Positions 12,327-63,065 of a DNA stretch of 64,000 nt are shown here, piece after piece. The DNA is from a virus (lineage: Duplodnaviria > Caudoviricetes), in the IMG/VR virus record IMGVR_UViG_3300028591_000139, positions 1-64,000 of that record. The stretch is one strand, 5' to 3'. Both the position numbers and the translations under genes were made by a program. The first letter of the stretch is position 1. Each line of letters opens with the position of its first letter. The notes under the pieces are model-generated. The model was given only the letters and a program-made list of their open reading frames with translations. It was not told the DNA's origin and ran no database searches.

Positions 12327-12572
12327 TTAATCAACCAAAAGTTGTTTATTATCTTCTGTTAAAATTGTTTTTGAACTTTCTGTTCTTTCTATTAAACCCT
12401 TATCTTTTTTAATTTTCTTAACTACTGGTTGAGGGTTATCATTTAATATTGTTTCAACCATTGATATTTTATCTTTATGCATAACTTCTTTTTTTTCTAT
12501 TTTGCTATTATTTTTTTCTGCCACTTTCTTTTGTGGCTTTATTTCTTGATTATGTTTTATAATAAATGCCAT
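12327..12572 (-). CDS. Hypothetical protein
   Basis: 81-aa ORF in the operon, preceded by a TATTTAT motif. Confidence 0.55.
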   Translation of the reverse strand: MAFIIKHNQEIKPQKKVAEKNNSKIEKKEVMHKDKISMVETILNDNPQPVVKKIKKDKGLIERTESSKTILTEDNKQLLVD

Positions 12573-12601
12573 AAATATAATATTTTATAAATAAATATCA
12601 T

Positions 12602-13012
12602 TTATTGTAAAAAAATATTTTTATTTTCTATTTTTTCTAAATCTTTAATGCTTAAAACACCGCTTGACAGTATAATAAGTTTATTTTCATAAGACCCCCA
12701 ATCTATTTCCACCTCATTATGCGGTTTTGTGCTATCATAATCGCTTTGGCTTTCAATCAATCTATTGATGGCGTTAATTGAAAAGAGGCATTTATTTTTA
12801 ACGTGAAGAACTGCTGAACCGGGTAAATCTTTAATTATTTCATCCTTATTAAATGTTCTAAATGTGACCAAATATTCTTTACTATTTGAACTTACATTAT
12901 AGACATAGATTTTATCCATGTTTAATTTGAATTTATTTTTCAACCCTTCTAAAAACGTTAATATTAATTCTTTTTTAACAAACGTACCAATTATTACTCC
13001 ATTTTTTGACAT
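12602..13012 (-). CDS. Hypothetical protein
   Basis: 136-aa ORF co-oriented in the operon. Confidence 0.6.
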   Translation of the reverse strand: MSKNGVIIGTFVKKELILTFLEGLKNKFKLNMDKIYVYNVSSNSKEYLVTFRTFNKDEIIKDLPGSAVLHVKNKCLFSINAINRLIESQSDYDSTKPHNEVEIDWGSYENKLIILSSGVLSIKDLEKIENKNIFLQ

Positions 13013-20805: not shown

Positions 20806-20817
20806 ATTTATAGTTTT

Positions 20818-21138
20818 TTAAACCAATCCGTATAATTCTTCATATACATCTATATCATTATTATATCCTGCAAGTGCCACATCTAATGGATATGGTATTC
20901 TTATTTTAGACCCATTTGGTATTTTAAACTCAAAAGAGCCATATTCAGGATTTGCTTGTAAAATAAGCCAATCAAAGCCAGAATCGCCATAAAATTGATA
21001 AGATAATAAATCTAATCTTGTTTTACCAACCTCATAATAAGTATAATAATCTGTATTTCTTACTGGTATTGGTATAAATGGAACATGTAATAATTGTCCA
21101 TTTCTTCTAAATTTAAAATATCTATCGTATAATGCCAT
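20818..21138 (-). CDS. Baseplate wedge LysM-like protein (gp53/P2 gpX-like)
   Basis: RLDLLSYQFYGD..WLILQANP..IPNGSKIRIP. Confidence 0.75.
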   Translation of the reverse strand: MALYDRYFKFRRNGQLLHVPFIPIPVRNTDYYTYYEVGKTRLDLLSYQFYGDSGFDWLILQANPEYGSFEFKIPNGSKIRIPYPLDVALAGYNNDIDVYEELYGLV

Positions 21139-21153
21139 AATGTTTTAAATTTT

Positions 21154-25011: not shown

Positions 25012-25055
25012 ATTTTATAAAATACTGTTTTTAGTTAAAAAATAAATAATAAATA

Positions 25056-28000
25056 TTATTTACCAGCAGTTGCATATTGTTGCGTCTTATTATTCTGTTC
25101 TGACTCCATATTACGCTTACCACCGCCGCCTTGCACACTAAGTCTTTGAGTTATCAAATCTGTAATCTGACGCTTAAACTCAGGATTATCGAGTAATTTA
25201 GAAATGTCTAAATCTGCTGATTTGCCGCCACTTTCTAACTTTATAGCTCCACTAATATTAAGATTAACATCAACTGGAAAAGTATTTTTACTAACCGTTT
25301 GCTCTTTTACTCCATTATTAGAAGGCTTAACTCTTTGATAATTAACAGCTCTTTCTCCATTCTCCTTAACTATATAATATTTCTCCAAGCCATTCTTTCC
25401 GTTTAGCGATTGTTTAGGCTTATCGCCAATTAGCAATTGGCCAATCTCTAATTTAGGAATACGGCTTATCCTAATTCTCATTCTATTTTCATTATTTACA
25501 TTTAGCTTACCATTTTTAGCATACGAAGAAATATTTTTTGCTATGCCATTAGTGCCATTAAAAAGAGTATTGGCAATAAACCCAAATAAACCGCCACGAC
25601 CAGTTCTATCAAAGAAATCTTTTTCTGGTAATTTATTATCAATTGATATTAATACATTAATTACTTTATCTAAGCCTTCACACTCATAATCTGCCGAGGA
25701 TTTAATTTTCTTATCTTTATTCTTATTAACTCCAAAAATTCTACCAATATCTCTATTTCTTTTTGCTTCTCTTTCTTTATTAAGCATCCAAGACATTCCA
25801 AAGAAACCACTATTTCCAAAAATCTTGCCTTTAGCTAATTTATTATCAATAGATACTAAAATGTTAGCAATTTTATCTATACCCTCTCCTTCATAATCCT
25901 TAAGAGTTTTCTCTTTTTCCTTTTCTTTTTTCTTTTTATCTTCGTCGTTCTTCTTTTTCTTGCTACCAAATATACTACCTATTAAACCGATAGGGCCAGA
26001 TGCTATTGTTTTTACTACAGACAAAGCTCCCTTTCCAACTGATTTAGCAGCGGACCAAGCGCCTTTAGCTACTTTTCCAACGCCTTTTGCCAAAGGACCA
26101 ACTACGCCACCAACAGTCTTACCTAAAACGCCTCCCAATTTACTTCCAAGCCATCCGCCTATAACAGTACCAACTACTGGAATAGGTATCATTGTTCCTA
26201 ATATACTTCCAGCTATACCACCAGCAGTGCTACCAACACCTTCTCCAATACCTGCATTCCTTTGGTTTTGGATTTTTTCTATGGCCTTATCTTTCTCTTC
26301 TTTTGATAAGTTACTGCTAAGTATTGCATTCTTTTGAGCATTGTAGTTAGATATGGATGAAGAAATATCCATAGCGCCTCCAAGAACGCCTCCTGTTATA
26401 GCTAACGGTCCAGCACCTTTTAAGGCTTTTAAAGCAGTTCCTGCGCCTTTTAATGCCGTGCCGGCTGCTGGTGCTGCTTTTGATAAACCGCTAACAGCTC
26501 CTCCAATTTTTCCTGCACTAACTGCACTTCCAATTTTACCTGCATTGGCAGCTCCTCTGCCATAGCTACCATAACTGAGCGCGTCAGTTATGCCATAGTC
26601 ATCTCCAAATCCACCAATTAAGCCTCCGCCTAATGTTATAGCAGCTAACCCGCCAAGTCCCTTAAATTTACCGGCAATTTTTCCTATCTTACCTCCAATT
26701 TTGCCGCCAAATTTTCCTAACTTACCAAATTTGCCTCCAATCCATTGGCCAATGCTGGAGTTTTTAATCATGCTAAATCCTCTACTTAAAAGATTCATAA
26801 TAGAGGAAAAACCATTTCTAAGGAATCCAAACAAGCCACTCCATTTAGTCCTTATGTAATTAAATGTTGGAGCAAGCCCATCCTTAGCAAATTTAAACAC
26901 AGAGCTTAAGCCACTAGTAAATCTGGGGAACATAGTAGCAATACCGCTTGAGAATATTTCCCACATTTTCGAACCTTTTTCAGTAATTGTACCCCAAGCA
27001 GCGTGAGCTTTTTCTGAAAAACCTGTTAATACATCTTTGAACCTAGTACCTACATTTTGTACTGCCCCTTCTGCTTTCTTTTCTACCGTAGAAACCGCTT
27101 CTGATTGTTTGTTTTGTTTTTGCTTCTGTTTGAAATGCTCTGCCAAATTTTTTGGCTTTTTCATTATGCCACTAAAATTACCCCTTGGCATATCTCTATA
27201 AATGGCAGATAAAATCTTAACCATTTCTATTGGGGCCTGCCTTAGCATTTGCATTTGCTTAATCTGTCTAGAAACAAGTGTAGCACCTGCCATAGCTCCC
27301 AATGTTCCAGATACGCCCTTTCCTGACATTAAACTAAGGCTACCGCCAATTAAAGATAATGGGTTAGCAAGTGATTTAAGCATTCCAACGCCGTTTCCTA
27401 CCATTCCGCCCTTATCATACATTAATGGCGTTCTTCCATGTTCTTGGACAGTATTTATTGCGCTAACCAATGGCGCAGTTTTTGGATTTTCAACAGTTTC
27501 TTTATTAACAACAAACTCGCCTCTATGCACTATACCTGCAACATCATGTTTATCGCCATATCCGGTATATCCTCCCTTATCAAAGCCAAATCCTTCAGCC
27601 CCATGAGTTCCCATATCTATATTGCCAAAGAATCCTGATAAACCTTTAAGCATATCCCAAGGGAAGAAGCTTCCACCATTCATCCATCCTGAAACAAGCC
27701 CCATATACATATTTTGGAACTGTGCCAAGAATGCTTTTGCCTCTTCTTTTAGTCCTGCTATATTTTCTTTTGTAGAAGTCGTTCCTCTAGCACGGCCCAA
27801 AGTGTCTTGAAGAATGCCTTTAATGTCTTGAACATCGCTAAACAGCCCCTCTTCTGACATTTGTCTATCTTGAGCGACTGCCAATTGCTCTCTTGTAAGG
27901 TCTTCTATTTTTGAAGTTTGTTCTTCACCGTTTTCATCAAACCATGTTATTTGATGCTTACCAGTGGCCAAATCCACATTGTTTCTTGAAAGGTTGCGTA

Positions 28001-29003
28001 TTGCCTCTAGCTCTACTTTGCTAAACTTACCATAGTTGCCGGCATTCCTAAGTTCCTCATCTATTTTTTCATTTTGAGTCTTGGCCATTGCTGGTTCGGT
28101 TAACTTATCAACAGAAACACCAAGAGTTTTGGCCATTTCTTTCAATTGCATCATGGTTATAGGGTCAAATTTAACCTCACCAGTTTCTTTTTGATATGTA
28201 CCTTTTCCTGCAATTGTTTGTTCTACTCTATTCATGAATGCTTTGGGGTCGGCCATTGCCTCATACATAGCGCCCATAGGATTGCTAAATTGCATTCCAA
28301 AGCTTCCGCCAAGCATTTGAATTCTAGCAGAGTTAGATATAGCATCTTCAATATTTCCAAAGTTTTCAGAAGCATGAAGCATTGCTTCCATGTCCATTCT
28401 CATAGATGTGGCTTTAAGTGCCATCTGTTCAATGTCCTTAACGCCATTCTTGAAAGAATACATGGAGGCGGCTTTAATATTATTCTTAAATGTCTCAGTT
28501 GCTTTAGCAGAGCTAACACCCAGGGCTTTTGCCCTTGCTTGCATTCTTCCAACAGTAGCAGTTGCTCTTTCTAAGCCAATGCCTATTTTATCAAAACTAT
28601 TAATTAACTCAACAGCAGCAGATGAAGAACCAACAATTTTACTCAATGCAGCAGTCGCTTCTATCTGCTTTTGCGTAAGAATAATATTTCTACCTGTATT
28701 TTTAGCATATTCTTCTTGGAAAGAAGCTATTTCTTCATGAGAAATACCATAAGCCCTTGACAGAGCTTTTGTGTTATCCATTAAAGCTCTGGTATATTTC
28801 ATGGACATGTCTCTTCCCATGCCCATGGTTCTTGAGGTCTTAAATGCTGTATCTTGGAATTCTACCCATTTCCCAGTAAATTTATCGAATTTTCTTCCGA
28901 CATTACTAATAGCGCCGCCAAGAGCATTAAATACTCCGCTCACCATTTGTATTCCTTTACCAATTTTGCCTATTGCTCCTAATACTGTTCCAAATGCACC
29001 CAT
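25056..29003 (-). CDS. Tape measure protein
   Basis: 1315 aa, helical and Ala/Gly-rich with glycine-zipper stretches; GGYTG..AGIVHRGEFV motif; follows chaperone genes. Confidence 0.85.
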   Translation of the reverse strand: MGAFGTVLGAIGKIGKGIQMVSGVFNALGGAISNVGRKFDKFTGKWVEFQDTAFKTSRTMGMGRDMSMKYTRALMDNTKALSRAYGISHEEIASFQEEYAKNTGRNIILTQKQIEATAALSKIVGSSSAAVELINSFDKIGIGLERATATVGRMQARAKALGVSSAKATETFKNNIKAASMYSFKNGVKDIEQMALKATSMRMDMEAMLHASENFGNIEDAISNSARIQMLGGSFGMQFSNPMGAMYEAMADPKAFMNRVEQTIAGKGTYQKETGEVKFDPITMMQLKEMAKTLGVSVDKLTEPAMAKTQNEKIDEELRNAGNYGKFSKVELEAIRNLSRNNVDLATGKHQITWFDENGEEQTSKIEDLTREQLAVAQDRQMSEEGLFSDVQDIKGILQDTLGRARGTTSTKENIAGLKEEAKAFLAQFQNMYMGLVSGWMNGGSFFPWDMLKGLSGFFGNIDMGTHGAEGFGFDKGGYTGYGDKHDVAGIVHRGEFVVNKETVENPKTAPLVSAINTVQEHGRTPLMYDKGGMVGNGVGMLKSLANPLSLIGGSLSLMSGKGVSGTLGAMAGATLVSRQIKQMQMLRQAPIEMVKILSAIYRDMPRGNFSGIMKKPKNLAEHFKQKQKQNKQSEAVSTVEKKAEGAVQNVGTRFKDVLTGFSEKAHAAWGTITEKGSKMWEIFSSGIATMFPRFTSGLSSVFKFAKDGLAPTFNYIRTKWSGLFGFLRNGFSSIMNLLSRGFSMIKNSSIGQWIGGKFGKLGKFGGKIGGKIGKIAGKFKGLGGLAAITLGGGLIGGFGDDYGITDALSYGSYGRGAANAGKIGSAVSAGKIGGAVSGLSKAAPAAGTALKGAGTALKALKGAGPLAITGGVLGGAMDISSSISNYNAQKNAILSSNLSKEEKDKAIEKIQNQRNAGIGEGVGSTAGGIAGSILGTMIPIPVVGTVIGGWLGSKLGGVLGKTVGGVVGPLAKGVGKVAKGAWSAAKSVGKGALSVVKTIASGPIGLIGSIFGSKKKKNDEDKKKKEKEKEKTLKDYEGEGIDKIANILVSIDNKLAKGKIFGNSGFFGMSWMLNKEREAKRNRDIGRIFGVNKNKDKKIKSSADYECEGLDKVINVLISIDNKLPEKDFFDRTGRGGLFGFIANTLFNGTNGIAKNISSYAKNGKLNVNNENRMRIRISRIPKLEIGQLLIGDKPKQSLNGKNGLEKYYIVKENGERAVNYQRVKPSNNGVKEQTVSKNTFPVDVNLNISGAIKLESGGKSADLDISKLLDNPEFKRQITDLITQRLSVQGGGGKRNMESEQNNKTQQYATAGK

Positions 29004-49298: not shown

Positions 49299-50258
49299 AT
49301 GCCAAAGAAATTAACAACGGAAGAATTTATAAAAAGAGCAAAACTGCTTCATAATAATAAATATGACTATTCAAAATCTGAATATAATACAGCAAAAGAA
49401 AAAATTTGCATAATATGTCCGGAGCACGGTGAATTCTGGCAAACTCCAACCGACCATTTAAGTGGAAGGGGATGTTATAAGTGTGGAATAGAAAGGACAA
49501 AAGAATCACAAAAATTCACTACAGAACAGTTTATAGAAAAAGCTAAACAAACCCATGGTGACAAATATAATTATTCAAAAGTTAATTATGTTAACTCACA
49601 AACACCAGTAATTATTACATGTCCAAAACATGGAGATTTTATTATGCGTCCAAACGACCACATTCAAGGCCAAGGTTGCCCAAAGTGCAAGTTAATATTT
49701 CTAAGGAATAAATTCTCTCTCACAACTGAACAATTTATTAAAAAAGCAAGAGAAATACATGGTAATAAATATGTTTATTCTAAAGTAAAATACGTGAATA
49801 ATAGGACAAAAGTTTGTATTATATGCCCAAAACATGGTGAATTTTGGCAAACTCCGGACAAACATTTGCAAGGGTGTAATTGTCCCAAATGCAATAAAAG
49901 CAGATTAGAAGAAAAAGTTAGCCTTATTTTATCAAAAAATAACATTGACTTTGAAGAGCAAAAGCATTTTGAATGGCTTGGTAGACAAAGTTTAGATTTT
50001 TTTCTTCCAAAGTTTAGTATAGGAATTGAATGTCAAGGAGTAGAACACTTTAAACCTGTGGAAAGATTTAAAGGAAGCGGAGGCTTTGAAAATACCAATG
50101 AAAGGGATGTATTAAAATATAGGCTTTGCGGTAACAATAAAGTCAAATTACTTTATTATACAAATCTTAAAGAATATAACACATTTCTCAATGAATCTTT
50201 AATTAAAAATGAAGATGATTTAATCAAAGTAATCACAGAAAATAATAAAAATATATAG
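49299..50258 (+). CDS. Free-standing endonuclease, 3 zinc-ribbon repeats plus nuclease domain
   Basis: CP(E/K)HG x3; LDFFLPKFSIGIECQGVEHF. Confidence 0.8.
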   Translation: MPKKLTTEEFIKRAKLLHNNKYDYSKSEYNTAKEKICIICPEHGEFWQTPTDHLSGRGCYKCGIERTKESQKFTTEQFIEKAKQTHGDKYNYSKVNYVNSQTPVIITCPKHGDFIMRPNDHIQGQGCPKCKLIFLRNKFSLTTEQFIKKAREIHGNKYVYSKVKYVNNRTKVCIICPKHGEFWQTPDKHLQGCNCPKCNKSRLEEKVSLILSKNNIDFEEQKHFEWLGRQSLDFFLPKFSIGIECQGVEHFKPVERFKGSGGFENTNERDVLKYRLCGNNKVKLLYYTNLKEYNTFLNESLIKNEDDLIKVITENNKNI

Positions 50259-51683: not shown

Positions 51684-54143
51684 ATGGCAAAAGAAATTAC
51701 AACAGAAATGGTAAACACATTCCTTAGTGGGCACGACCCAATGGAACATATTGTTTCAATTGAATGTGATTATATGGATAGTATGGCAAATATTATCTAT
51801 AATAATGAAAACGGAGAAAAAAGAGTTAAAAGAGAGCCATTTAAACCATTTATATGGGTCAAAAATAGCGCGTGCATAAGAATGTTTGGTGGCAATAGAA
51901 GCTTGTTAATCAGAAAATTAAGGGAATATAATATAAACGTCAAAAAATTAACAGACAAAAGAGAAGACGGCACTAAAATAGAAAGACTTGAAAACGGATA
52001 TAAATATCTGTTCTACGCCACTAAAAATATGCCATATTCAAGATTCCTAAACTTCTTTACAGAAGCAGGAACACCAATATATGATAAAAATGCGGCAACA
52101 GAAAGAGGAGGCGGCTCAAAAGAATTTATGGCAATTACACCAATTGAACAATTTATGATTCAAACTGGAAAAAGACTGTTCAAAGGATATGAAAACTATG
52201 ACGATTTAAAGAGATTCTTGTTCGACCTTGAAACACAAGGGCTTAACCCAAGAATACACGCCATAGACCAAATTGGTATGAGAACCAATAAAGGTTTTGA
52301 GAAAATTATTACAATAACAGGCGAAGGGGAAGAGAGAAATAAAAATGAATTAGAGGCAATTGACGAATTCCTAAAAACAATATATGAAGAAAAACCCGAT
52401 ATTATAGCAGGACATAACTCAGAAAACTTCGATTGGGACTTCATAATCATCAGATGCGAAGTGTTGGGCACAACACTACAAGAAATGTCATCAAAATACT
52501 TCAAACACCCAATATATAAAAAGAAAAAAAACGCAGTGCTAAAACTCGGAGGAGAAATGGAATATTATAAACCAACTATGGCTTGGGGCTTTAGCGTGTT
52601 AGACTCACTACATGCAGTCAGAAGAGCACAAGCACTTGACTCCAATATGAAATCTGCGTCACTTAAATATACGACAAAATATCTCAACCTTAAAAAACCA
52701 AATCGAGTATATGTTCCAGGAGGAATAATTACAAAAGTATGGAACGTCACAGAAAAAAAATATGCCTTTAGAAATACAGACGGAGATTGGTATGAAATAA
52801 AAGACGATAGAAAACTACTAGACGGCTATGAATTAACAAGTGGAAGATACATAGTAGAAAGATACTTGTTGGACGACCTTTGGGAAACTGATAAAGTAGA
52901 ACTTACACTAAATGAGTCTAACTTCCTCGTGGCAAAATTACTCCCAACGTCATTTACAAGAGCGTGCACAATGGGAACAGCAGGAATTTGGAAATTAATT
53001 ATGCTTGCTTGGAGCTATGAAAATAATCTTGCAGTACCGGCAACAAGCGAAAACGCTCGCTTTACAGGAGGCCTATCACGATTATTAAAAGTGGGATATG
53101 TCGATAGAATCGTAAAATTAGACTACAACTCACTTTATCCATCAATAGACTTAACGTGGTGGGTTAGCACGGGATTAGACATAGATAATATTATGCTCCA
53201 TCTTCTCGAACATATATTAACAAACCGAGAAAAATATAAAAAAATAAAAGAAGAATACGGAGAAAAAGCAAATAAACTAAAAGATAAATTAAATTCAACC
53301 GATTTAACAGAAGAAGAAAAAACAAATATAAAAAACGAAATTGCACGCTGTAAATCAATCAAATCAGCGAATGATAAGAAACAACTACCTTTAAAGATTT
53401 TGGCCAATAGCTTTTTCGGGTCATACGGGTGTCCACAAGTGTTTCCGTTTGGCGATTTGGAAGCTGCTGAGAAAACAACTTGTATTGGAAGACAGAGTTT
53501 ACGTTTAATGATTTCTCATTTTTCGACATTAAGCGAAAAGTTTGGCATTAATAATTCTGACTATAATTACACTCCTGTTGTGGGCGACTCGTTCACAGGT
53601 GATACACCATTATTTATAAAGTACGATGAAAACGGGTTAATTGATATAAAGCCAGTTGAGGAGTTAATTGGCGAAACGGAAGTTGATGCGTTGGGCCGTG
53701 AATATGATACGTCCCAGAAGCCATTTAAAGTGCTCTGTAGAAGCGGTTGGATGCATCCTGAGTATATTTACCGTCACAAGACAGAAAAGCCGTTGTACGA
53801 ACTTTCTGATGGCAATATGAACGTTGTGGTAACAGAGGACCACAGTTTGTTTAATAACAGACAGGAAAAAATCAAGCCAAGCGAAATAAATGCCGAAACA
53901 AAATTGGAATATTACAATGAAAAGCTTGACCACAGTTATACTGACCCAAGTATTAAGCAAATAATAACGATAGCCAAGATGGTGAAGAACGGCACGTTTG
54001 ATAGAATACCGATTAGCATTCTTAACTTAGACAAAAAACAAAGAATACAGGTGTTTTTAGATGTTCTTGGAGATGTGGACTACTCAAAAATTAGCAAAAC
54101 TTGTGCAGCTGGAATATTATTTTTAAAAAAGCAAATTATTTAA
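51684..54143 (+). CDS. polB: Family B DNA polymerase N-terminal part (aa 1-635) fused to the split intein N-half
   Basis: ExoI FDLET, ExoII GHNSENFDW, ExoIII YLLDD, motif A LDYNSLYPS, motif B KILANSFFG; ends VVGD, then intein. Confidence 0.95.
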   Translation: MAKEITTEMVNTFLSGHDPMEHIVSIECDYMDSMANIIYNNENGEKRVKREPFKPFIWVKNSACIRMFGGNRSLLIRKLREYNINVKKLTDKREDGTKIERLENGYKYLFYATKNMPYSRFLNFFTEAGTPIYDKNAATERGGGSKEFMAITPIEQFMIQTGKRLFKGYENYDDLKRFLFDLETQGLNPRIHAIDQIGMRTNKGFEKIITITGEGEERNKNELEAIDEFLKTIYEEKPDIIAGHNSENFDWDFIIIRCEVLGTTLQEMSSKYFKHPIYKKKKNAVLKLGGEMEYYKPTMAWGFSVLDSLHAVRRAQALDSNMKSASLKYTTKYLNLKKPNRVYVPGGIITKVWNVTEKKYAFRNTDGDWYEIKDDRKLLDGYELTSGRYIVERYLLDDLWETDKVELTLNESNFLVAKLLPTSFTRACTMGTAGIWKLIMLAWSYENNLAVPATSENARFTGGLSRLLKVGYVDRIVKLDYNSLYPSIDLTWWVSTGLDIDNIMLHLLEHILTNREKYKKIKEEYGEKANKLKDKLNSTDLTEEEKTNIKNEIARCKSIKSANDKKQLPLKILANSFFGSYGCPQVFPFGDLEAAEKTTCIGRQSLRLMISHFSTLSEKFGINNSDYNYTPVVGDSFTGDTPLFIKYDENGLIDIKPVEELIGETEVDALGREYDTSQKPFKVLCRSGWMHPEYIYRHKTEKPLYELSDGNMNVVVTEDHSLFNNRQEKIKPSEINAETKLEYYNEKLDHSYTDPSIKQIITIAKMVKNGTFDRIPISILNLDKKQRIQVFLDVLGDVDYSKISKTCAAGILFLKKQII
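53589..54140 (+). other. Split intein N-fragment (IntN, 184 aa)
   Basis: Block A SFTGDTPLFIK..IKPVEEL immediately after VGD; block B VVTEDHSLF (TxxH). Confidence 0.9.
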
Positions 54144-54190
54144 GTAATTTTTATTGGAGTATCAGATATTTATTCTAAAGGCGGTATAAT

Positions 54191-55906
54191 ATGGGAAGAT
54201 TTAATGAAGAAAAATTTATAAAAGAATTTAATGAAATTCATAATAATGAATATGAATATTTAAGTTATGAAAATGGGCTGGTGAAATTTTTATGTAAAAA
54301 GCATAATGAAATAAATTATGACACGCCATCGCATTTAAGGGACCCAAAAAGGGGGTGTAAGATTTGCGGAAAAGAAAGACAATCACTTTTTAATAAAAAT
54401 TCAAATAAATTAGCGAAAGAAACTTTTATTGAAAAAGCCAAAAAAATACATGGCGATAAATATGATTATTCTAAAACAGTATATGTAAAAAATAGTATTA
54501 AGGTTATTGTAACATGCCCAACTCATGGGGATTTTACAATAACCCCTAATTCCCATTTAAATGGAGAGGGGTGTTATCGGTGCGGATTAGAGCATTCGCA
54601 TGAAAAATTTAGAAAAACAAAAGAGCAATTCATTGAAGAAGCAAAAAAAATTCATGGGGATAAGTACGATTATTCAAAGGTAGAATATGTTAATACAAAT
54701 CAAAAAGTATGCATAATATGCCCAGAGCATGGAGAATTTTGGCAAGTTCCTTTTAAGCATCTAATGGGTCAAGGATGTCGAAAATGCGGCATAAAAAAAC
54801 GTTCGGCGCAACAAATGCTCACAACAGAACAATTTATTGAAAAGGCGAGACAAGTTCACGGGGACAAATATGACTATTCCAAAGTTGTTTATAATGGATA
54901 TGACAATGAAGTCATTATAACGTGCCCTAAGCATGGAGATTTTAAACAAATACCAGATTCTCATATTCATGGAAGTGGCTGTCAAAAATGCTCTAGTAGC
55001 ATTTCTAAATATGAAAGCGAAATATATGAATTTATATGTAATTTAATTGGTAAAGATAATGTAATACAAAGAGAAAGAAATATACTAAAAAATAAAGCAG
55101 AACTTGACATTTTTATACCATCAAAAAATATAGCAATAGAATATAATGGCTGTAGATGGCACTCTGAACAATTTAATAAAGATAAGAACTACCATTTAAG
55201 TAAAACTCTTCAATGTAGAGAAAATGGTATAAAGCTAATACAAATATTTGAAGATGAATATATAGACAAAAAAGAAATAGTCTTATCTAAATTAAAACAT
55301 TTATTGAATATAGATGACGGCGAAAAAATACAAGCTAGAAAATGTTTAATTTATGAAATTTCTTACTATGAAGCAAAAAAATTTTTAGAAAAAAATCATA
55401 TACAAGGTAAATGTAAATCAACTATATATTTGGGGGCATATTACGAAAAAAACATAGTAGGAGTAATGGCGCTCACAAAACTAAATGATGATAACGAGTG
55501 GGAATTAAATAGATTTGCCACCAAAATAAATACTATTAGCCAAGGCATAGGTAGTAAAATGTTCTCATTCTTTATTGAAAAATATAAACCAGAAACTGTA
55601 AAATCTTTTGCCGATAGAAGATGGACTATTAATGAAAATGAAAATCTATATACAAAATTAGGTTTCAGGTTAAAAAGCATTTTACAGCCAGATTACAAAT
55701 ATATTATAGATGGCACATATAATAGAGTGCATAAATTTAATTTTAGAAAATCTATTTTATCAAAAAAATATAATTTACCAATGTCTTTAACAGAAAGAGA
55801 AATGTGTGAGAAAATAAAAGCATATAAAATATGGGACTGCGGCTTGCTAAAATATATTTGGAAAAAATCTAAAATCAAAATAATTGATAAAGAAATTATA
55901 ATTTAG
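54191..55906 (+). CDS. Free-standing endonuclease (4 zinc-ribbon repeats plus nuclease) with C-terminal GNAT/Mom-like domain (Hef-like architecture)
   Basis: Repeats; LDIFIPSKNIAIEYNGCRWH; then NHIQG, WELNRFA, GIGSKMF, KSFADRRW, LYTKLGF, IWDCG. Confidence 0.75.
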   Translation: MGRFNEEKFIKEFNEIHNNEYEYLSYENGLVKFLCKKHNEINYDTPSHLRDPKRGCKICGKERQSLFNKNSNKLAKETFIEKAKKIHGDKYDYSKTVYVKNSIKVIVTCPTHGDFTITPNSHLNGEGCYRCGLEHSHEKFRKTKEQFIEEAKKIHGDKYDYSKVEYVNTNQKVCIICPEHGEFWQVPFKHLMGQGCRKCGIKKRSAQQMLTTEQFIEKARQVHGDKYDYSKVVYNGYDNEVIITCPKHGDFKQIPDSHIHGSGCQKCSSSISKYESEIYEFICNLIGKDNVIQRERNILKNKAELDIFIPSKNIAIEYNGCRWHSEQFNKDKNYHLSKTLQCRENGIKLIQIFEDEYIDKKEIVLSKLKHLLNIDDGEKIQARKCLIYEISYYEAKKFLEKNHIQGKCKSTIYLGAYYEKNIVGVMALTKLNDDNEWELNRFATKINTISQGIGSKMFSFFIEKYKPETVKSFADRRWTINENENLYTKLGFRLKSILQPDYKYIIDGTYNRVHKFNFRKSILSKKYNLPMSLTEREMCEKIKAYKIWDCGLLKYIWKKSKIKIIDKEIII

Positions 55907-55971
55907 GTATAGAATACCCATATCAAGTTTTTGAGAATAAAGAAGAACTTTTAAAAGAAATACTAAAATGA
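55891..55971 (+). pseudogene. Fossil C-terminus of a previous endonuclease gene
   Basis: Reads RNYNLGIEYPYQVFENKEELLKEILK*; its TGA overlaps the ATG at 55968 (ATGA); resembles the C-termini of the window's other endonucleases. Confidence 0.55.
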
Positions 55972-56069
55972 TTGAAACAAAAAACATAGGAAACACAAGT
56001 GATTACGTGTATGATATATCTTTGGACGGCACAGTTATTAACGCTTTGGGAATGAATGTAATGTCAAAT
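55968..56069 (+). other. Split intein C-fragment (IntC, 34 aa)
   Basis: Block F DYVYDISLD, block G ...VMSN, followed by Thr(+1) of TDG. Confidence 0.9.
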
Positions 56070-57521
56070 ACCGATGGTTTCAACTTCCAAATGCCAAAAA
56101 AATTCAGGTATACTGATGAAAATCCATATGTTGGAAAGGGCCTTGGAAGAAATGTTGAAAAGGGAAAGACGTATACAAAAGTGGAAGCAGACGTTGCAGA
56201 ATTTGAAGACTTATATTTTAATTCGCCGTATAACGGAGGCATTAATAAAATGGGTTTGGGAATAGATGAGTATTGTGACGCTTGTATACAGTTCGCAAGA
56301 AAAAATTACGCGGACCTTATGCCGGATGGTTCTACAAAAAAAGTTGGAAATACCATTAAATCAAGAAAGATGTCGGGTTATTTGGAGAAGTTTATTGATG
56401 ATGGAATAAATTTATTGCTTCACGGTAATGGTTCAAAATTTTTGGAAAATTATTATGATTATATTTCAAGGATTTACAATTATCAAATTCCGATAAAGGA
56501 TATTGCTTCAAAGGGTAAGATTAAGAAGACTATTGATGAGTACAAGACTGACTGTAACACTTTAACGAAGGCAGGTAATAAGAAGTCTCGTCAGGCGTGG
56601 TATGAGTTGGTTATCAGGGAGAATTTAAATGTAAATGTGAGTGACACCATTTATTACATAAATACGGGAACGAAGAAGGGTCATTCTGACGTTAAGAAAG
56701 TTACGCATCAATTTATAAAGGATGAGAATGGCGATATTATTGAGTTGACCAACAAATTAAAGACCGAGTTATTTAAGAAAGAGTTGGAGAATTATGGCGT
56801 TGAGAATGTTAAGGGGTTATCTTCTGATAATAAGAAGGAGATAATAAAGAAATATGTTATTCGTGAGGAGGATGAGATTATTCTTAATTGTCAAATTGTC
56901 CCTGCTGAAATAATGGAAGATGAGAAGGATATTTTATGCAGCGATATTGATGGTTTGGAATATAATTCCGAAAAATATATTGAGCAGTTTAATAACAGGA
57001 TAAAGCCATTATTGGTTTGTTTTTCTCCAAATATAAGAAATGAGATATTAATTTCAAATCCGGAGAATAGAAAATATTTTACCGAAGAGGAGGCAAAATT
57101 GGTTGCTGGTTATCCCAACAAAGAGTCTGACCAAGACACTTATGAAGCTTTAATGACTCCCGAGAAGAAGGAGATTGCTTATTGGTTAAAGATTAATGAA
57201 ACACCGCCATTTATTAAGGAGTGCAACATAGATTGGGATAATTTGGTTAAAGATTACATTAAGGAAAAGGAGGAAAATGATAATGAATTATTTAAGGTTG
57301 AAAATGAAAAATATTTGGAGGCTTTAAATAATTTAACTGATAAAGATGTTGAAGCGTTTGAAGAAGATGGTGTTTTACCTCAAACAATATTAGATGTTGT
57401 AACATTAGATAGTGATATGCATTTTTATTTCAATAAAATACCTTCCGTAGTTCCATCAACTGGCGGCTTTGTATTTGATGACATATCTTATGACTATATT
57501 GATAAAAATGGAGATGAATAA
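55968..57521 (+). CDS. polB: Split intein C-half fused to family B DNA polymerase C-terminal part
   Basis: After the intein: TDG (rest of motif C), ARKNYA, KKVGNTIKS, IYYIN, KYIEQF palm/thumb motifs. Confidence 0.92.
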   Translation: MIETKNIGNTSDYVYDISLDGTVINALGMNVMSNTDGFNFQMPKKFRYTDENPYVGKGLGRNVEKGKTYTKVEADVAEFEDLYFNSPYNGGINKMGLGIDEYCDACIQFARKNYADLMPDGSTKKVGNTIKSRKMSGYLEKFIDDGINLLLHGNGSKFLENYYDYISRIYNYQIPIKDIASKGKIKKTIDEYKTDCNTLTKAGNKKSRQAWYELVIRENLNVNVSDTIYYINTGTKKGHSDVKKVTHQFIKDENGDIIELTNKLKTELFKKELENYGVENVKGLSSDNKKEIIKKYVIREEDEIILNCQIVPAEIMEDEKDILCSDIDGLEYNSEKYIEQFNNRIKPLLVCFSPNIRNEILISNPENRKYFTEEEAKLVAGYPNKESDQDTYEALMTPEKKEIAYWLKINETPPFIKECNIDWDNLVKDYIKEKEENDNELFKVENEKYLEALNNLTDKDVEAFEEDGVLPQTILDVVTLDSDMHFYFNKIPSVVPSTGGFVFDDISYDYIDKNGDE

Positions 57522-57566: not shown

Positions 57567-60500
57567 TTAGACATTATTTTGTCTTGCATAGTTTCCATAA
57601 TTAATATTGGAAGCACCAGTGCTGTCATCAATTTTATACTTATTATTAGGAGTTCCTGCTCCATTTGCTGTATATTCTCCGCAATTCCAAATGTTGCTCA
57701 GATATAAGCCATTAAATGTTGAGTCATCTGCTTGGCCTGTTATTTCAACTAATCTAAGGGCGTTTGTATCTGTTATTTCAGAATCATTTGTGCCGCTTAT
57801 GATTAGTTCGCTGTCGCTCATTCCCGGTGTTGTATTACCGTGTGACAGTCTCACATCAACTTTCAATGCGTCATTTTCAATATATACGTGTGATGAAGTT
57901 GTATCGCTTCCATCGAGCATATTATCAACTTTGTCATCCAACGCTTTAACTGCGTTATCCAACAGTTGGTCAGCGTTATATAATGATGTTGCTGCGCTAA
58001 TGACTGAACCGGTACTTGGGTGGTATTCGCAAGTTCCAGAGCCAAATCCTATTCCATTTTCTAAGCAGTTAATCTCATTTGACAAATCGTCAATATCATC
58101 TGTAGCAGCGCTAAGTGAATCTCCAATAACAGACATTATATCATTTGTGTTCTTTATTTCTCTGTCGAGGATAATATCTGCATTATTAAATGACGTAGCG
58201 CTTGCAATATAATTTGTGCCTGCGTTTGCCAAATATCTAAATTCAGTGCCATTATCATTCAATCCGCACTTAGGAACTGACATTCCAAGAACGTTATCTT
58301 GTGTGATATTGAGTTCATTTTGTACGCACTGAGTATCACCGGATGATTCAGTTATTTTGCTTTCCAAGCTTGCTGTATATGAAGAGAGTTCTCTAACGGT
58401 TTGGTCAAGCAAATATGTAGCGTTATTGATATTAGTTGCGTTTGCAATATATGTGCTTCCATTAGGAGCGTGGTAAACAAATCCGGCTCCGCATTCGGGA
58501 ATGCTCTCATTTCCAAACACTGCTTTTTCTACACTTGTAAGTTCAGATTTAACGCACTCACTTGAAGCGGTTGCGGCACTTATTAATGCTCCTGATACAT
58601 ATAAGCCATTGCTAACTATTTTAACGATATTGTCATCAAGATTAGTTAATACAATTCTTCCGCTTAATGTATCACTATATCCACTACCATTAGTGACTTT
58701 AGTTAATTCAATTGCGCTATCTTCTGAAGGATTATCTACAACCCAATCATTGAACAGTTCATTAACAGGAACATTCATTGTATGAGATACGCCATTTGAA
58801 TCGTGGTATGTGATAACCAATACTCTATTAATGCTATCGTATACTATGGTGTCAAGTAATGCGCCTGCGTTAAGTTGTATTTCATCTTGTGCTCCGTTAG
58901 ATGTGATAATACGTATCTTATTAGTGGCCGAGTCATATCCCAATCTTACTGATGCAAATATGCCGGCATTTTCTCCACTAATTTTGATGATATTATCATT
59001 GGAGTTGGCAACTTTAACATTGGCAGTAACCACATTTTCGGCAGATTTATTCAAATCTATTGTTGTGGTATCGTCGAACGTTAATGTGCTAGCGGTTAAT
59101 GTTTCGCTTAATTCCTCATCTTTTGCAATTCTTGCTGCTGTTTCGGCTGAAATTAAGTTTGCGAGCTCAGTTTCTTTAGCGGTTGAGCGGGCGATTTCGC
59201 CGTCAATCTTAGTATTAAGAGTTGTTTCAGCATTGGTTGCGCGTGTGGCTTCATTGCTAATAGCTGTTTGCAGTGCTGTTTCAGCGCTTGAAGCGCGAGC
59301 GATTTCTCCGCTTATTCTATTATCCAAAGCCGTTTCGGCACTAGTGGCACGATTTTCCTCACTACCTATTGCTGTTTGCAGTGCTGACTCTGCGCTTGTT
59401 GCCCTTGAAGTCTCATTGGTTAAAGAAGTTTGCAGTGCGCTCTCTGCACTTGCTGCGCGGCTTGCTTCATTTGTGATAAGTGTATTCAAGTTACTATCTG
59501 CATTATCGCGTAGCACAGCTTCATTGCTTATTCTTTCTTGTAAGAGAGTTTCTGCGTCGGTTGCCCTTGTCACTTCAGCATTTAAGCTATTTGTAATAGC
59601 GCTTTCAGCTTCTTTTGCGCGAGTTATCTCTTCTGTTAAATCATCAGTTAAAGCAGATTCAACATTTTTAGCTCTATTTACTTCATTTTCTAAGTTTGAA
59701 ACGACTGTATTGATTGAAATTTGCAATTCGCTATCTTTTTGAGTTGAGCGAGAAACCTCATTATTGATTTTCGTATCAATGGCTGTTTCTGCATTTGTGG
59801 CACGTGCGCTTTCATTATCAATTGCGGTCTGTAGAGCTGTTTCTGCGCTTAATGCTCTGGTTCTTTCTGTATTAACAGATGTCGTCAAAGCTGCTTCTGC
59901 GTTAGTAGCACGAGAAACTTCTGCTGTCAGTGCTGTTTCTAGGTCTAAGTCTTTATCAGCCGAACGGCTCACTTCTGCGTCTAAATCGTTTCTTAGAGTT
60001 GTTTCAACACCGACGGCACGATTTATTTCAGTATCAAGCTTAGTATTGATAGTTGTTTCGGCATTAGTAGCACGTGTGGTTTCGCTATTAATAGCTGTTT
60101 GCAAAGCAGTTTCAGCACTTATTGCGCGAGTTTTCTCTGTTTGTATATTAGAGGCGTTTGATGTGGCTGATATTGCCAATTCTTCATCTTTAGCGGTAGA
60201 GCGTATGATTTCTGCATCTAATTTATCTTCAATCCTTGTATCTTCTCCTGTGGCTCTACTAATCTCACTTGCCAAATCAGTTGAAAGGGTTCTCTCTGCA
60301 TCAGTTGCTCTACTTACTTCGGCAGTTAATCTGCTGTCTAAAGAGCTTACGTTTGTTTCAAGAGTGCTTGTTCTGTTCTGCAATGCTGTTATATCTGTTG
60401 CATTTTTAGTAATGCCTGATGATGTAACATATAATGTTCCTCCATCATTTACCAATATATTATCATTATGGGTAGAGATAACAACGGCAGCTTTAAGTAT

Positions 60501-63065
60501 GTCTTGTTCAGACGTACCGCTTGCTTTTCTTTCTTTGGTGAGTTGTATCGCTCCTTCGTGTCCATCCCACACTCTCCATTCTGTAATTAAATCGCCAACG
60601 GGAACAACTACGTCAGGTTGTCTCACACCATTTATTGTATATTCAATAATAATAGCTTCTTTTACAGAATCATAATATATTCTATCTACAACAGAATTTG
60701 TTTTTAATTCAATATATTTAACGCCATTTGTAGTTGAGAAAATTAACTCATTTTTACCTGCATTTGGGTCAAAATTATAAGTTAAATCAACGCCTGCATA
60801 AAGTCCATCATTATTAAGTTTAATAATATTTTCTTTACCTGATTCAATTTCAGTACTTAAATTAACTTTAATAACGGGATTTACACTATCTGTATTATCA
60901 ACATCGATTGAATGGTCATTATTAACAATGGAGTCTACTTTGCCGCCTGTATCAGCACTAAGTTCTGCAATTGCTTCATTAATTTCTTGTATTTTGGCGT
61001 CGTGTTCATTATCTTTTTCTATTGAACGGCTTGCCTCATAATTTAAATCATTTCTTAATGAAGTTTCAATGCTTGTGGCTCTTTCAATTTCATCATTTAA
61101 TGAATTTTCTATTTCATTAAACTTATATGTTACAGTTTCATGGCTATCTGTTGAGAATCCTGTACCAATAGTTGTTTCAACGTTGCCTATTTTAACATCA
61201 TGTTCTCCGTCTTTAGTAGTAGAGCGTGAAATCTCTGAAGAAAGTCTTTCATTGATTGAAGCATCTTCATTAACTAAATTGTTGATTTCTGAGGTAACGT
61301 TTGCGCTAAACTCGTTAAATTTATATGTAACGGTTTCATGGCCATCTGTTGAGAATCCTGTACCAATAGTTGTTTCAACATCAGCTATTTTAGCATCATG
61401 TTCATTATCTTTAGCGGTTGAACGTACAATTTCAGTTGCAACTCTTTCGTTTATTGCAGCATCTTCACTAACTAAACTGTTAATTTCAGAAGCAACATTT
61501 CCACTAAATTCATTGAACTTATATGTTATATTCTCATGTGGGTCAGTTGTAAAGCCTGTACCAATAGTATCATTAAATTTATTATCACTTTGTATTCTAT
61601 TAGATATTTCTTCATCTATTTTTTCATCAAGTGATGCGGTAGATGCTGAAAGATTATCTAATACACTTTTAACGGTAGTATCATCTAATGAAGTATATTT
61701 TATATTATCAGATACACCATTTACATATAATGTATGGTCTTTATCTTCCAATATATTATTAGCTCCATTATATATTTTAGCGTCGGCAGAAAGCATATCT
61801 TTTCCGCTTCCAGTACTACGTTGTTTATTAAGTAAAATAGTGTGCCCTTCATTTACAACGTCCCATTCTTCGATAATATCTTTAACAGGTATTTCTACTC
61901 TTTGATAATCACCCTTTTCATCTATATAACGAATAACTAAAACCTCATTGGTTGGGTCATAAGTTATATCATGTAATACCTGAAGGCTATTTAATTCAAT
62001 TTCAGAGGTAATTACACTTTCTGATTCTCCATCGGAATACTTATAGATAAGGGTATTTCTTGTCTTATCATATGTAAGCATTGCTGCGGCAAATATGCCA
62101 TCGTGACGTTTATAAATTAAATTACCGGCACTTGTAGAAATATTAGTATCTATATTATCCAACGCATCTTTAACCGTCAAATCGCTCTTATAATGTATAT
62201 TATCAGCAGTACCTTCAACCACCAAATATCTACCTGTTCCATCTTTATGCAAAATATTATGGGGAACGTGCTCTGCCACTCTAACATCTGCTGTTAAAAG
62301 GTCTTGCCATCCATATATACCTTCATGTGATTCTGTATATGAGCTAACGTGTTCTTTAAATAAAACAACCGGTGTTGTACTTGCTGAACCAACTACGGTC
62401 CACTCATCTATAAGCTTTACAACATCAATTTTAACTTTGGAATCGTCAGCAAGTGTCAACACAATCTCCTCATTGATTTCATCATATTCCCCCTTTTTAA
62501 TATGTTTGTCTTTGGGTAACTCAAATTCCTTGGTAACACCATTAACATTAAACGTTATTGCAAATGTCTCAGGGTCATAATTCATATCAACAAAGGCATA
62601 TAAACCTTTATTTCCCTCAGTCTGTAATATGTTGTAATTAACTGTACCAGCTGTAGAAATTCTATAATCTGCCAATTTAACGTCACCACTTAAAACCGTG
62701 CCATCTTCATTATTGTCTGAAAATAGCTTAACCGTATTGCTCTCCAAAGGAATGACAGTTAATGATTTAATAGCCTCTTCTATTTTCTCATCAAGAGCTT
62801 CTATTTCTTCAGCGGTTTTTTGGGTATCAATAAAGAAAGTTCTATTATTGGCATTAGGCCTTCCATTTCCAACAGAACCAATGGCCAAAATAACATTTGG
62901 CCCCTTGGTAGCATCACTATTTTCATACAGCAAAACCATAGGCTCGGCAACAACCGTTGGTCTTTCAACCACTTGTTTATCAAGCACGTAGTTTATTGCC
63001 TCTTCTCTGGTAGCAAAAACATTTTCATGTTTTACAAATTGTAATCTATCAAATATATTTTCCAT
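57567..63065 (-). CDS. Long fibre-like structural protein with a coiled-coil stalk
   Basis: 1832 aa; 18-aa E..RA..AE..L repeats and repeated beta modules (YD..LVI.Y, IPV.DLI.EW). Confidence 0.65.
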   Translation of the reverse strand: MENIFDRLQFVKHENVFATREEAINYVLDKQVVERPTVVAEPMVLLYENSDATKGPNVILAIGSVGNGRPNANNRTFFIDTQKTAEEIEALDEKIEEAIKSLTVIPLESNTVKLFSDNNEDGTVLSGDVKLADYRISTAGTVNYNILQTEGNKGLYAFVDMNYDPETFAITFNVNGVTKEFELPKDKHIKKGEYDEINEEIVLTLADDSKVKIDVVKLIDEWTVVGSASTTPVVLFKEHVSSYTESHEGIYGWQDLLTADVRVAEHVPHNILHKDGTGRYLVVEGTADNIHYKSDLTVKDALDNIDTNISTSAGNLIYKRHDGIFAAAMLTYDKTRNTLIYKYSDGESESVITSEIELNSLQVLHDITYDPTNEVLVIRYIDEKGDYQRVEIPVKDIIEEWDVVNEGHTILLNKQRSTGSGKDMLSADAKIYNGANNILEDKDHTLYVNGVSDNIKYTSLDDTTVKSVLDNLSASTASLDEKIDEEISNRIQSDNKFNDTIGTGFTTDPHENITYKFNEFSGNVASEINSLVSEDAAINERVATEIVRSTAKDNEHDAKIADVETTIGTGFSTDGHETVTYKFNEFSANVTSEINNLVNEDASINERLSSEISRSTTKDGEHDVKIGNVETTIGTGFSTDSHETVTYKFNEIENSLNDEIERATSIETSLRNDLNYEASRSIEKDNEHDAKIQEINEAIAELSADTGGKVDSIVNNDHSIDVDNTDSVNPVIKVNLSTEIESGKENIIKLNNDGLYAGVDLTYNFDPNAGKNELIFSTTNGVKYIELKTNSVVDRIYYDSVKEAIIIEYTINGVRQPDVVVPVGDLITEWRVWDGHEGAIQLTKERKASGTSEQDILKAAVVISTHNDNILVNDGGTLYVTSSGITKNATDITALQNRTSTLETNVSSLDSRLTAEVSRATDAERTLSTDLASEISRATGEDTRIEDKLDAEIIRSTAKDEELAISATSNASNIQTEKTRAISAETALQTAINSETTRATNAETTINTKLDTEINRAVGVETTLRNDLDAEVSRSADKDLDLETALTAEVSRATNAEAALTTSVNTERTRALSAETALQTAIDNESARATNAETAIDTKINNEVSRSTQKDSELQISINTVVSNLENEVNRAKNVESALTDDLTEEITRAKEAESAITNSLNAEVTRATDAETLLQERISNEAVLRDNADSNLNTLITNEASRAASAESALQTSLTNETSRATSAESALQTAIGSEENRATSAETALDNRISGEIARASSAETALQTAISNEATRATNAETTLNTKIDGEIARSTAKETELANLISAETAARIAKDEELSETLTASTLTFDDTTTIDLNKSAENVVTANVKVANSNDNIIKISGENAGIFASVRLGYDSATNKIRIITSNGAQDEIQLNAGALLDTIVYDSINRVLVITYHDSNGVSHTMNVPVNELFNDWVVDNPSEDSAIELTKVTNGSGYSDTLSGRIVLTNLDDNIVKIVSNGLYVSGALISAATASSECVKSELTSVEKAVFGNESIPECGAGFVYHAPNGSTYIANATNINNATYLLDQTVRELSSYTASLESKITESSGDTQCVQNELNITQDNVLGMSVPKCGLNDNGTEFRYLANAGTNYIASATSFNNADIILDREIKNTNDIMSVIGDSLSAATDDIDDLSNEINCLENGIGFGSGTCEYHPSTGSVISAATSLYNADQLLDNAVKALDDKVDNMLDGSDTTSSHVYIENDALKVDVRLSHGNTTPGMSDSELIISGTNDSEITDTNALRLVEITGQADDSTFNGLYLSNIWNCGEYTANGAGTPNNKYKIDDSTGASNINYGNYARQNNV
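61100..61580 (-). repeat. Tandem 198-bp (66-aa) coding repeats, about 2.5-3 copies
   Basis: TIGTGFxTDxHExxTYKFNE recurs; CCTGTACCAATAGT spaced 198 bp apart. Confidence 0.85.

Follow-up and report, generated by a model that had tools for sequence, protein, structure and literature searches.

How can a phage make an active DNA polymerase from a gene that is broken inside a catalytic motif? The question is raised by positions 51684-57521 of a 64,000 nt stretch of DNA (hereafter the window), which covers positions 1 to 64,000 of IMG/VR record IMGVR_UViG_3300028591_000139, a 99.5-kb phage record with a CheckV completeness of 29%. At this locus a family B DNA polymerase (PolB) is encoded in two halves on separate open reading frames (ORFs). 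Each half carries a fragment of an intein at the break in motif C, and a free-standing homing endonuclease gene lies between them. The sequence-bearing runs are sheep-gut metagenomes and genomes of relatives reach 409-412 kb; the host of the locus is an uncultured sheep-gut jumbo phage. Runs X3-X5 and X7-X10, with only a small share of the sequence, do not enter into this habitat assignment. A megablast search with the locus found no match among 50,697 phage records; this phage has no close cultured relative. As judged from sequence and structural models, the element very probably works as a split intein, predicted to rebuild the polymerase by protein trans-splicing.

The locus consists of three ORFs arranged head to tail on the + strand. 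The first (51684-54143, 819 aa) matches Pfam DNA_pol_B_exo1 and the first 200 positions of DNA_pol_B, as well as the PHROG DNA polymerase family phrog_262 (7e-59). Its N-extein of 635 aa (51684-53588) comprises the exonuclease domain and palm motifs A and B and ends with ..YTPVVGD, the first half of motif C. The reading continues directly with SFTGDTPL, from Ser636 at 53589, up to a stop codon at 54141-54143. The N-terminal intein fragment (IntN, 184 aa) is composed of a splicing part (intein residues 1-115, 53589-53933), with Ser1, block A, the NX motif and block B, and of a tail (residues 116-184, 53934-54143 with the stop codon) that is predicted to form a four-helix piece and has the conserved end SKTCAAGILFLK. 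A spacer of 47 nt (54144-54190) separates the IntN stop from the start of the endonuclease gene (54191-55906, + strand, 571 aa). A conserved module of about 65 nt (55904-55967), delimited by DNA alignment and non-coding in the window, lies directly upstream of the last ORF. This ORF (55968-57521) opens with its own ATG and with the 34 aa of the C-terminal intein fragment (IntC, 55968-56069), MIETKNIGNTSDYVYDISLDGTVINALGMNVMSN, ending with ..YVYDISLDGTVINALGMNVMSN, where the terminal Asn34 occupies 56067-56069. It continues with TDGFNFQMPK, the start of a C-extein of 483 aa (56070-57521 with the stop codon) in which Thr+1-Asp-Gly is the second half of motif C. The C-terminal ORF had no Pfam match and no PHROG match and was identified only via its relatives: in tblastn searches the C-extein matches Salinibacter phage DNA polymerases, and it has 403 homologues, including full-length PolBs. 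An earlier note on this DNA, made from the letters alone, had described the exonuclease motifs, motifs A and B, the VGD/SFTGDTPL junction, the TEDH of block B and the stop codon of the first ORF, all of which are confirmed by Pfam and by the sequence; the 34 aa fragment followed by TDGF that it saw in the last ORF is confirmed both by reading and by the relatives.

We then turned to related loci, 20 of which came from a scan of viral contigs with the C-terminal ORF as query. Their allele states were read by tblastn with five parts of the locus, combined with stop-to-stop ORF maps; the only complete related genome is G001 (409,537 bp), the genome of locus L020. Three allele states occur at one identical site in these jumbo-phage loci. 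Seven alleles are empty (L003, L008, L009, L013, L015, L016 and L017), with the polymerase in a single ORF that spans 1109-1118 codons between stops and reads IVGD/TDGFNFQMP. Seven others (L002, L005, L006, L007, L011, L012 and L021) hold a contiguous intein within single ORFs of 1463-1489 codons. This intein is 355 aa long (IVGD/SVTYDTP...VCHN/TDGF), matches both Intein_splicing and LAGLIDADG_3, and shows a weak match to PI-PkoII (2cw7, E 0.0085). The remaining six (L004, L010, L014, L018, L019 and L020) are split, with an IntN of 183-201 aa and an IntC of 34-38 aa that has its own ATG; with the window they make up the seven split alleles discussed below. Because natural empty alleles exist, up to 81% identical to the exteins of the window, the excision point VGD/TDG is exactly defined. 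The N-extein of the window is 55-79% identical to those of the relatives, which in empty alleles join TDG directly, and excision restores motif C as it stands in the empty alleles. The two exteins sum to 1118 aa (635+483), in agreement with the uninterrupted ORFs of the relatives and with the product of about 1118 aa, with a restored VGD-TDG, that the earlier note had computed. That note had also proposed a search of related phages for uninterrupted and contiguous-intein alleles, and both were found, in seven loci each. A metagenomic protein of 1432 aa, P0008, also carries a contiguous intein at the same site; it ends with ..NNVVAQ/TDGF, having a C-terminal Gln in place of Asn, and its block F resembles that of the split type.

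The residues expected of a class 1 intein can be placed one by one on the window sequence. The first-residue nucleophile is Ser1 (53589-53591), directly after VGD, and is invariant in the seven split and the seven contiguous alleles. Block A reads SFTGDTP, of which DTP is invariant across the seven split alleles. The NX motif is R62-H63 (53772-53777), where Y-R62-H63-K-T is invariant in split alleles and K-H is found in contiguous ones; an R/K-H motif at this place is specific to Ser1 oxyester inteins (Mootz and co-workers, PMC10189870). Block B, V-T82-E-D-H85-S (T82-H85 at 53832-53843), contains the T-x-x-H signature and is likewise invariant. On the IntC side, block F is YVYDISLDG and block G is NVMSN, so that the intein ends with ..VMSN34 followed by T+1-D-G; the terminal Asn and Thr+1 are invariant. 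The insertion lies at VGD/TDG, between the D and the T of PolB motif C. This corresponds to the pol-c site, described as YGD/TDS and used with Ser1, Asn and Thr+1 (PMC549080), and the assignment to this site made in the earlier note holds. By its sequence, the window intein is thus a class 1, cysteine-independent intein (Ser1/Asn/Thr+1) at the pol-c site.

Conservation and selection speak for a functional split form. IntN identity among the seven split alleles ranges from 47 to 87%, yet the catalytic positions do not vary: Ser1, DTP, Y-x-Y-R-H-K-T, V-x-V-T-x-D-H-S-L-F, V-Y-D-I-S-L-D-G, the terminal Asn and T+1-D-G are found in all of them, and within IntC V14-G21, A26, L27 and N34 are invariant. 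Furthermore, at least 10 additional metagenomic C-halves, each representing one 50%-identity cluster, start with an IntC of the same kind. The ratio of nonsynonymous to synonymous substitution rates (dN/dS) of IntN was 0.066 and 0.059 in the two pairs with unsaturated dS, and the N-extein in the first of them had 0.08. For the splicing part of IntN the ratio was 0.03-0.07, and for the tail 0.07-0.16 in close pairs. Purifying selection on IntN is as strong as on the polymerase. In the complete genome G001, the split PolB is the sole match to PolB, PolA or DnaE profiles, and no other match to these profiles was found in the record of the window, which is 29% complete.

Association of the two halves was evaluated by complex prediction, with IntN extended by five extein residues and IntC by ten. 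The model obtained an interface score (ipSAE) of 0.92, compared with 0.00 for the best of three controls; the same mark is attained by 58 of 80 solved complexes and by 2 of 110 mismatched pairs. The runs share at least 91% of their contacts, and the partners have a predicted local distance difference test (pLDDT) value of at least 75. IntC may complete a HINT fold in this complex, whose score of 0.92 possibly leans on solved split inteins.

We infer splicing activity along the following lines. Translation would yield two precursors, one joining PolB-N to the 184 aa IntN and the other the 34 aa IntC to PolB-C. IntN and IntC would associate and so complete the HINT fold. Splicing would then proceed by the oxyester pathway, with an N-O shift at Ser1, transesterification to Thr+1, cyclisation of Asn34 and an O-N shift. 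The product would be a polymerase of 1118 aa with the junction ..YTPVVGD-TDGFNFQMPK and the junction peptide YTPVVGDTDGFNFQMPK.

Several observations weigh against trans-splicing. The penultimate residue of the window intein is Ser and not His. A penultimate His in block G is common but not obligatory in inteins, and in this family the position is variable, with S, C, K and H in relatives and metagenomic C-halves. IntN alone scores below the Pfam Intein_splicing cut-off (14.7 vs 35.8 bits). The contiguous inteins of relatives score 31-33 bits against the same profile, from which the family is divergent. Modelled by itself, IntN gives a mediocre AlphaFold2 (AF2) structure (pLDDT 68); in a Foldseek search with it, the top matches are inteins at E 0.4-0.9, with none at E of 0.001 or less. 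At 184 aa, IntN is unusually long, and long IntN fragments may aggregate in vitro (PMC11923092). Split-intein complexes have been solved in the PDB, and the docking score may mirror likeness to them and not be independent support. Two of the split relatives, L014 and L020, read ..VISN/TDG(stop)LGFNF, with an in-frame TAG three codons past the splice junction, so that not every split allele is obviously intact. The phage of the window may itself possess a second polymerase, its record being only 29% complete. Taking these points into account, trans-splicing is the best explanation of the locus, with a probability that we put at roughly 0.85 on the basis of sequence and models. The split-intein and fractured-gene interpretation of the earlier note is in this way borne out by empty alleles, invariant catalytic positions, purifying selection, predicted docking and the absence of a detectable intron.

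Among the alternatives, the one that survives best is that the intein halves no longer splice and act as a non-covalent clasp, joining the polymerase fragments as a two-subunit enzyme. Unspliced two-piece PolBs do exist; PMC2677866 cites those of M. thermautotrophicus and of Aeromonas phage 25 (gp43). The penultimate His is also missing here. However, a mere clasp needs none of Ser1, R62-H63, T82, H85, Asn34 and Thr+1, which are invariant across alleles down to 47% identity, and the break within motif C parts the catalytic Asp residues by about 220 aa of intein. We consider such a clasp improbable. It is still less probable that the gene is a decaying pseudogene, with a polymerase killed by insertion of the endonuclease and replaced by another one. 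The low completeness of the record (29%), the in-frame TAG past the junction in L014 and L020, and an internal stop in the endonuclease of L010 would all be compatible with decay. Nevertheless, dN/dS is about 0.03-0.1 on exteins and IntN, both ORFs are intact in seven diverged phages, no second match to a PolB, PolA or DnaE profile exists in the complete genome of the relative G001, and at least 10 further metagenomic C-halves open with an IntC of the same kind. Invariant nucleophiles together with strong purifying selection fit badly with both the clasp and the pseudogene.

The TAG of L014 and L020 lies in a 9-nt insert, TAGCTAGGT, which contains the palindrome CTAGCTAG and is placed right after the T+1-D-G codons (positions 8073-8081 in both loci). 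L010 has the same IntC (97%) without this insert. Genome-wide recoding of TAG was considered for L014 and L020 and rejected, as the standard code covers 86% of G001; in this genome TAG terminates 21 of 200 long ORFs. A suppressor tRNA with anticodon CUA is encoded at L032:17177-17253 (- strand), corresponding to about 136.6 kb in G001, where about 40 tRNA genes are gathered in a region of roughly 60 kb. The polymerase C-half of L014 and L020 is either dependent on amber suppression or a dead gene.

A further alternative places the endonuclease in a self-splicing intron, or invokes another event at the RNA level, whose removal would give a contiguous intein ORF followed by cis-splicing. The N and C ORFs of the window do share a frame, and related gut jumbo phages hold many small group I introns (PMC12880540). 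Against this, Rfam searches gave no group I or group II match in 53300-56300, even at E 10, and none at E up to 1 over four other split loci. The endonuclease ORF is flanked by just 47 and 61 non-coding nt, and IntC has its own conserved ATG, which in relatives overlaps the endonuclease stop (ATGA). An exact contig from an RNA library (X6) is unspliced from the IntN stop into the endonuclease gene, with DNA carry-over possible; it hints at unspliced co-transcription weakly at best. This library covers the stretch thinly (12 of 30 bins), and neither its uncovered parts nor the absence of a spliced joint in it is evidence either way. An intron is, on these grounds, very unlikely. The frame relation of the two ORFs, which differs in L010, L018 and L019, was dropped as an argument against an intron since intron length is arbitrary. 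Finally, the sequence comes from a metagenome assembly, but an assembly artefact or chimaera as the source of the stop codon and insert can be dismissed for practical purposes: the split layout recurs in six further contigs, assembled independently from different samples, contigs of run X1 (the probable source run) tile the whole stretch with zero differences, and a contig of run X2 (an independent sheep-gut sample) bridges the IntN stop and the endonuclease start with zero differences. A contig of run X2 also joins position 53488, about 100 nt before the intein start, to 56068, 2 nt before the C-extein, the letters between being not known; it probably represents a co-occurring relative with another allele state.

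Given that the three ORFs lie head to tail on the same strand and that no terminator was found between them, they are probably co-transcribed. A promoter scan was uninformative (37 sites vs 32.7 expected). The fold found in 54120-54200 is not significant (-6 kcal/mol, z +0.83), and hairpins upstream of the endonuclease or upstream of IntC were no better than shuffled sequences.

The endonuclease encoded between the two intein halves belongs to PHROG homing-endonuclease families (phrog_559 at 1.6e-120, phrog_3339 at 2.4e-96). Four zinc-ribbon repeats (Pfam DUF723) precede its core, and a GNAT-like domain follows at the C-terminus, where matches to Acetyltransf_7 and MTES_1575 stay under the Pfam cut-offs. 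The nuclease core (approximately residues 270-380) is Vsr-like, of EDxHD type, and its AF2 model (pLDDT 81) matches the catalytic domain of I-Bth0305I (3r3p, E 2.2e-3, probability 1.00) and Vsr (1cw0/1vsr) in Foldseek; with phmmer, the endonuclease matches 3r3p at E 0.09. The Vsr-like/EDxHD family was first described in fractured genes (PMC2677866, PMC3239194). Acting at its presumed target, the endonuclease would allow the cassette to spread by gene conversion from one polymerase allele to another when phages co-infect a cell. A paralogue of 319 aa is encoded about 1.4 kb upstream of the polymerase gene (49299-50258, + strand; phrog_559 at 5.6e-70), with the same repeats and an aligned nuclease core and without the GNAT-like domain. 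Another paralogue (L003:4319-5419) is located directly upstream of an uninterrupted polymerase allele. These free-standing copies outside the intein suggest that the family also homes intergenically.

The arrangement found in the window is known in kind. Imam et al. (2019, PMC6892783) reported a polB (orf153), an HNH endonuclease (orf154) and orf155, together with a putative split intein, in the Pseudomonas jumbo phages MIJ3/PA5oct. The MIJ3 locus (L048) has the same order as the window, polB-N with IntN, endonuclease, and IntC with polB-C, again in a jumbo phage; its intein also has Ser1, an NX motif (YRHE) and the block B VTEDHS. The endonuclease is of the same family and architecture, with 36% identity to orf154 over about 500 aa (E 9e-80). 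In contrast to the window, the MIJ3 intein is inserted two residues later (YGDTD/S, with Ser+1) and ends with HN (PMC6892783 and the locus itself), its IntN lacks the long helical tail, its IntC ORF has a longer N-terminal lead, and identity between the two inteins is limited to about 45% over 45 aa. Several other naturally split, cysteine-independent PolB inteins have been characterised, namely Aes123 PolB1/CL/CLm (9HTH), CP21 PolB1, LCGC14 PolB2, GOM-OPS-1 PolB2 and PolB16 OarG, with biochemical work on Aes123 PolB1, CP21 PolB1, LCGC14 PolB2 and PolB16 OarG (PMC11923092, PMC12707363, PMC10189870). The Aes123 PolB1 intein (9HTH) is the best sequence match of the IntN splicing part to a solved structure, though a weak one (phmmer, E 0.011). 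These inteins share with the window Ser1, Ser or Thr at +1, the His of the NX motif and an origin in PolB-type polymerases of phages or metagenomes, sheep gut in the case of PolB16. They differ in having an IntN of 115-120 aa, compared with 184 aa here, and their sequence similarity is marginal; Aes123 is inserted at DTD/S (Asp-1, Thr-2, Ser+1; PMC13014065), and PolB16 at SGDTD/S with an atypical IntN of 15 aa. The earlier note had presented the window intein as a candidate new split intein, and in view of MIJ3 and of the characterised cysteine-independent inteins this novelty was overstated.

The insertion point itself is identical to that of the archaeal PI-PkoII (2cw7), Mimivirus PolB and split Neq Pol inteins (PMC549080). 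These pol-c inteins also have Ser1, a terminal Asn and Thr+1, and their cis forms hold a LAGLIDADG endonuclease. The archaeal and giant-virus ones are contiguous, unlike that of the window, and their sequence similarity is weak. The N. equitans polymerase is split at the same position, as the earlier note had stated; its halves are unlinked, with no endonuclease gene between them. Closer to the window is the PolB of Salicola jumbo phage SCTP-2 (MF360958, gene 179; L047), which contains a cis mini-intein at exactly the same site with homologous blocks (IIYGD/SVTHDT..YIYRHKT..VTEDHS..LLKN/TDS) and a penultimate residue that is also not His. In BLASTP, the alignment of the window and SCTP-2 inteins crosses the junction (E 4e-14). 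SCTP-2 differs in that its intein is contiguous, with neither a split nor an endonuclease gene.

The window also agrees with the fractured genes of Dassa et al. 2009 (PMC2677866), whose existence in the literature had been rightly cited: the intein halves are on adjacent ORFs of the same strand, a free-standing endonuclease (GIY-YIG or Vsr-like in those genes) lies between the halves, and the elements are of phage origin with hosts in DNA metabolism. The overlap of the endonuclease 3' end with the downstream start seen in fractured genes is present in L010, L014 and L020 and is replaced in the window by a relic gap of 61 nt; the hairpin described just upstream of the endonuclease was not seen in the window. 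PolB is not among the host enzymes of that study. Its model starts from an endonuclease-free intein, whereas the probable LAGLIDADG relic in the window IntN points to a maxi-intein ancestor. In gut 'Jug' (jumbo gut) phages, endonuclease genes are reported to interrupt polymerase genes (PMC12880540), in a paper that gives no split-intein analysis of this locus.

The cassette retains several traces of its history. An alignment pairs the IntN tail (residues 116-184) with the region of the second LAGLIDADG motif in the contiguous inteins of relatives (IPISILNL..QVFLDVLGDVDYSK.SKTCAAGILFL vs VPEFILNA..KAFLDGFCCGDG..KSKVAMAGLYFL). With hhalign, the match of the tail to the cis-intein endonuclease domain has E 2.1e-5 and a probability of 77%; a gap of 11 residues falls on the catalytic GDG. 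IntN lacks the first LAGLIDADG motif and the catalytic GDG, while the domain is intact in the cis inteins. AF2 predicts four helices for the tail (127-188, pLDDT 74-87), and in the complex model its residues 175-183 contact IntC. Judging from this alignment, the tail is probably the relic of an ancestral LAGLIDADG endonuclease domain, and its likeness to the second LAGLIDADG region indicates that the split form probably descends from a contiguous LAGLIDADG maxi-intein, like the one at the same site in relatives.

The gene that occupies the gap is subject to turnover. It encodes 571 aa in the window and 309-340 aa in L004, L014 and L020; it is split by an in-frame stop in L010 (7060-7953, 70 + 228 aa), represented by two endonuclease-like ORFs in L018 (6303-7928, 156 + 386 aa), and substituted in L019 (7389-7913) by an unrelated ORF of 175 aa with no family match. 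In relatives, the module of about 65 nt is coding and forms the 3' end of the shorter endonuclease gene (..GIEYPYQVFENKEELLKEIIK, then the stop), which overlaps the IntC ATG (ATGA). By this comparison, positions 55904-55967 of the window are a non-coding relic of the 3' end of a short endonuclease. The module and IntC together are the best-conserved DNA of the cassette, with 84-92% identity compared with 45-65% in the endonuclease body.

The two intein halves have discordant histories. L010 and L014 are 66% identical in IntN and 97% in IntC, whereas L014 and L004 are 80% and 67% identical, respectively. On the extein tree the allele states lie dispersed and require nine changes, no fewer than with shuffled labels. 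Scattered allele states and mosaic halves point to repeated gene conversion between co-infecting phages, and the mixing of IntN and IntC lineages suggests cross-reactivity within the family; in calling the intein a candidate 'orthogonal' one, the earlier note likewise claimed too much. These traces can be combined, tentatively, into one picture. The IntN tail of 70 aa may be a domesticated LAGLIDADG half-domain that packs on IntC and helps the halves to meet. The unit of endonuclease 3' end and IntC may move independently of IntN, which would produce naturally mixed and matched, cross-compatible Ser1/Thr+1 split inteins. A LAGLIDADG maxi-intein and an endonuclease-driven split intein may be in live competition at one site. 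We regard the combined picture as possible, though doubtful as a whole.

Other features were observed around these loci. A HEARO RNA (RF02033, 141.8 bits, E 3e-29) is present in L019 at 12490-12705 (- strand), about 3 kb downstream of the split polymerase. The window contains very long ORFs on the - strand at 13675-29003 and 57567-63065 (2376, 1285, 1315 and 1832 aa), of which the 1832 aa ORF is rich in repeated coiled-coil-like segments.

The window locus leaves the picture of what such elements are unchanged. What distinguishes this case is the pol-c/Thr+1 site, the LAGLIDADG relic in IntN, the turnover of the endonuclease, the mosaic of IntN and IntC, and the allelic series. Split inteins that depend only on Ser and Thr are rare and wanted for protein ligation in oxidising conditions (PMC12707363); this family is a source of numerous natural, diverged variants with a Thr+1 junction. 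The IntN of the window is long and contains non-catalytic cysteines. For the biology of the family, close polymerases offer a natural series at one site, from the empty allele to the contiguous LAGLIDADG intein and to the split intein with a free endonuclease. It comes with traces of intermediate steps, namely an endonuclease relic in IntN, an endonuclease replacement that left a 3' relic, and mosaic halves. This series bears on the origin of split inteins, which was left partly open in the 2009 fractured-gene model.

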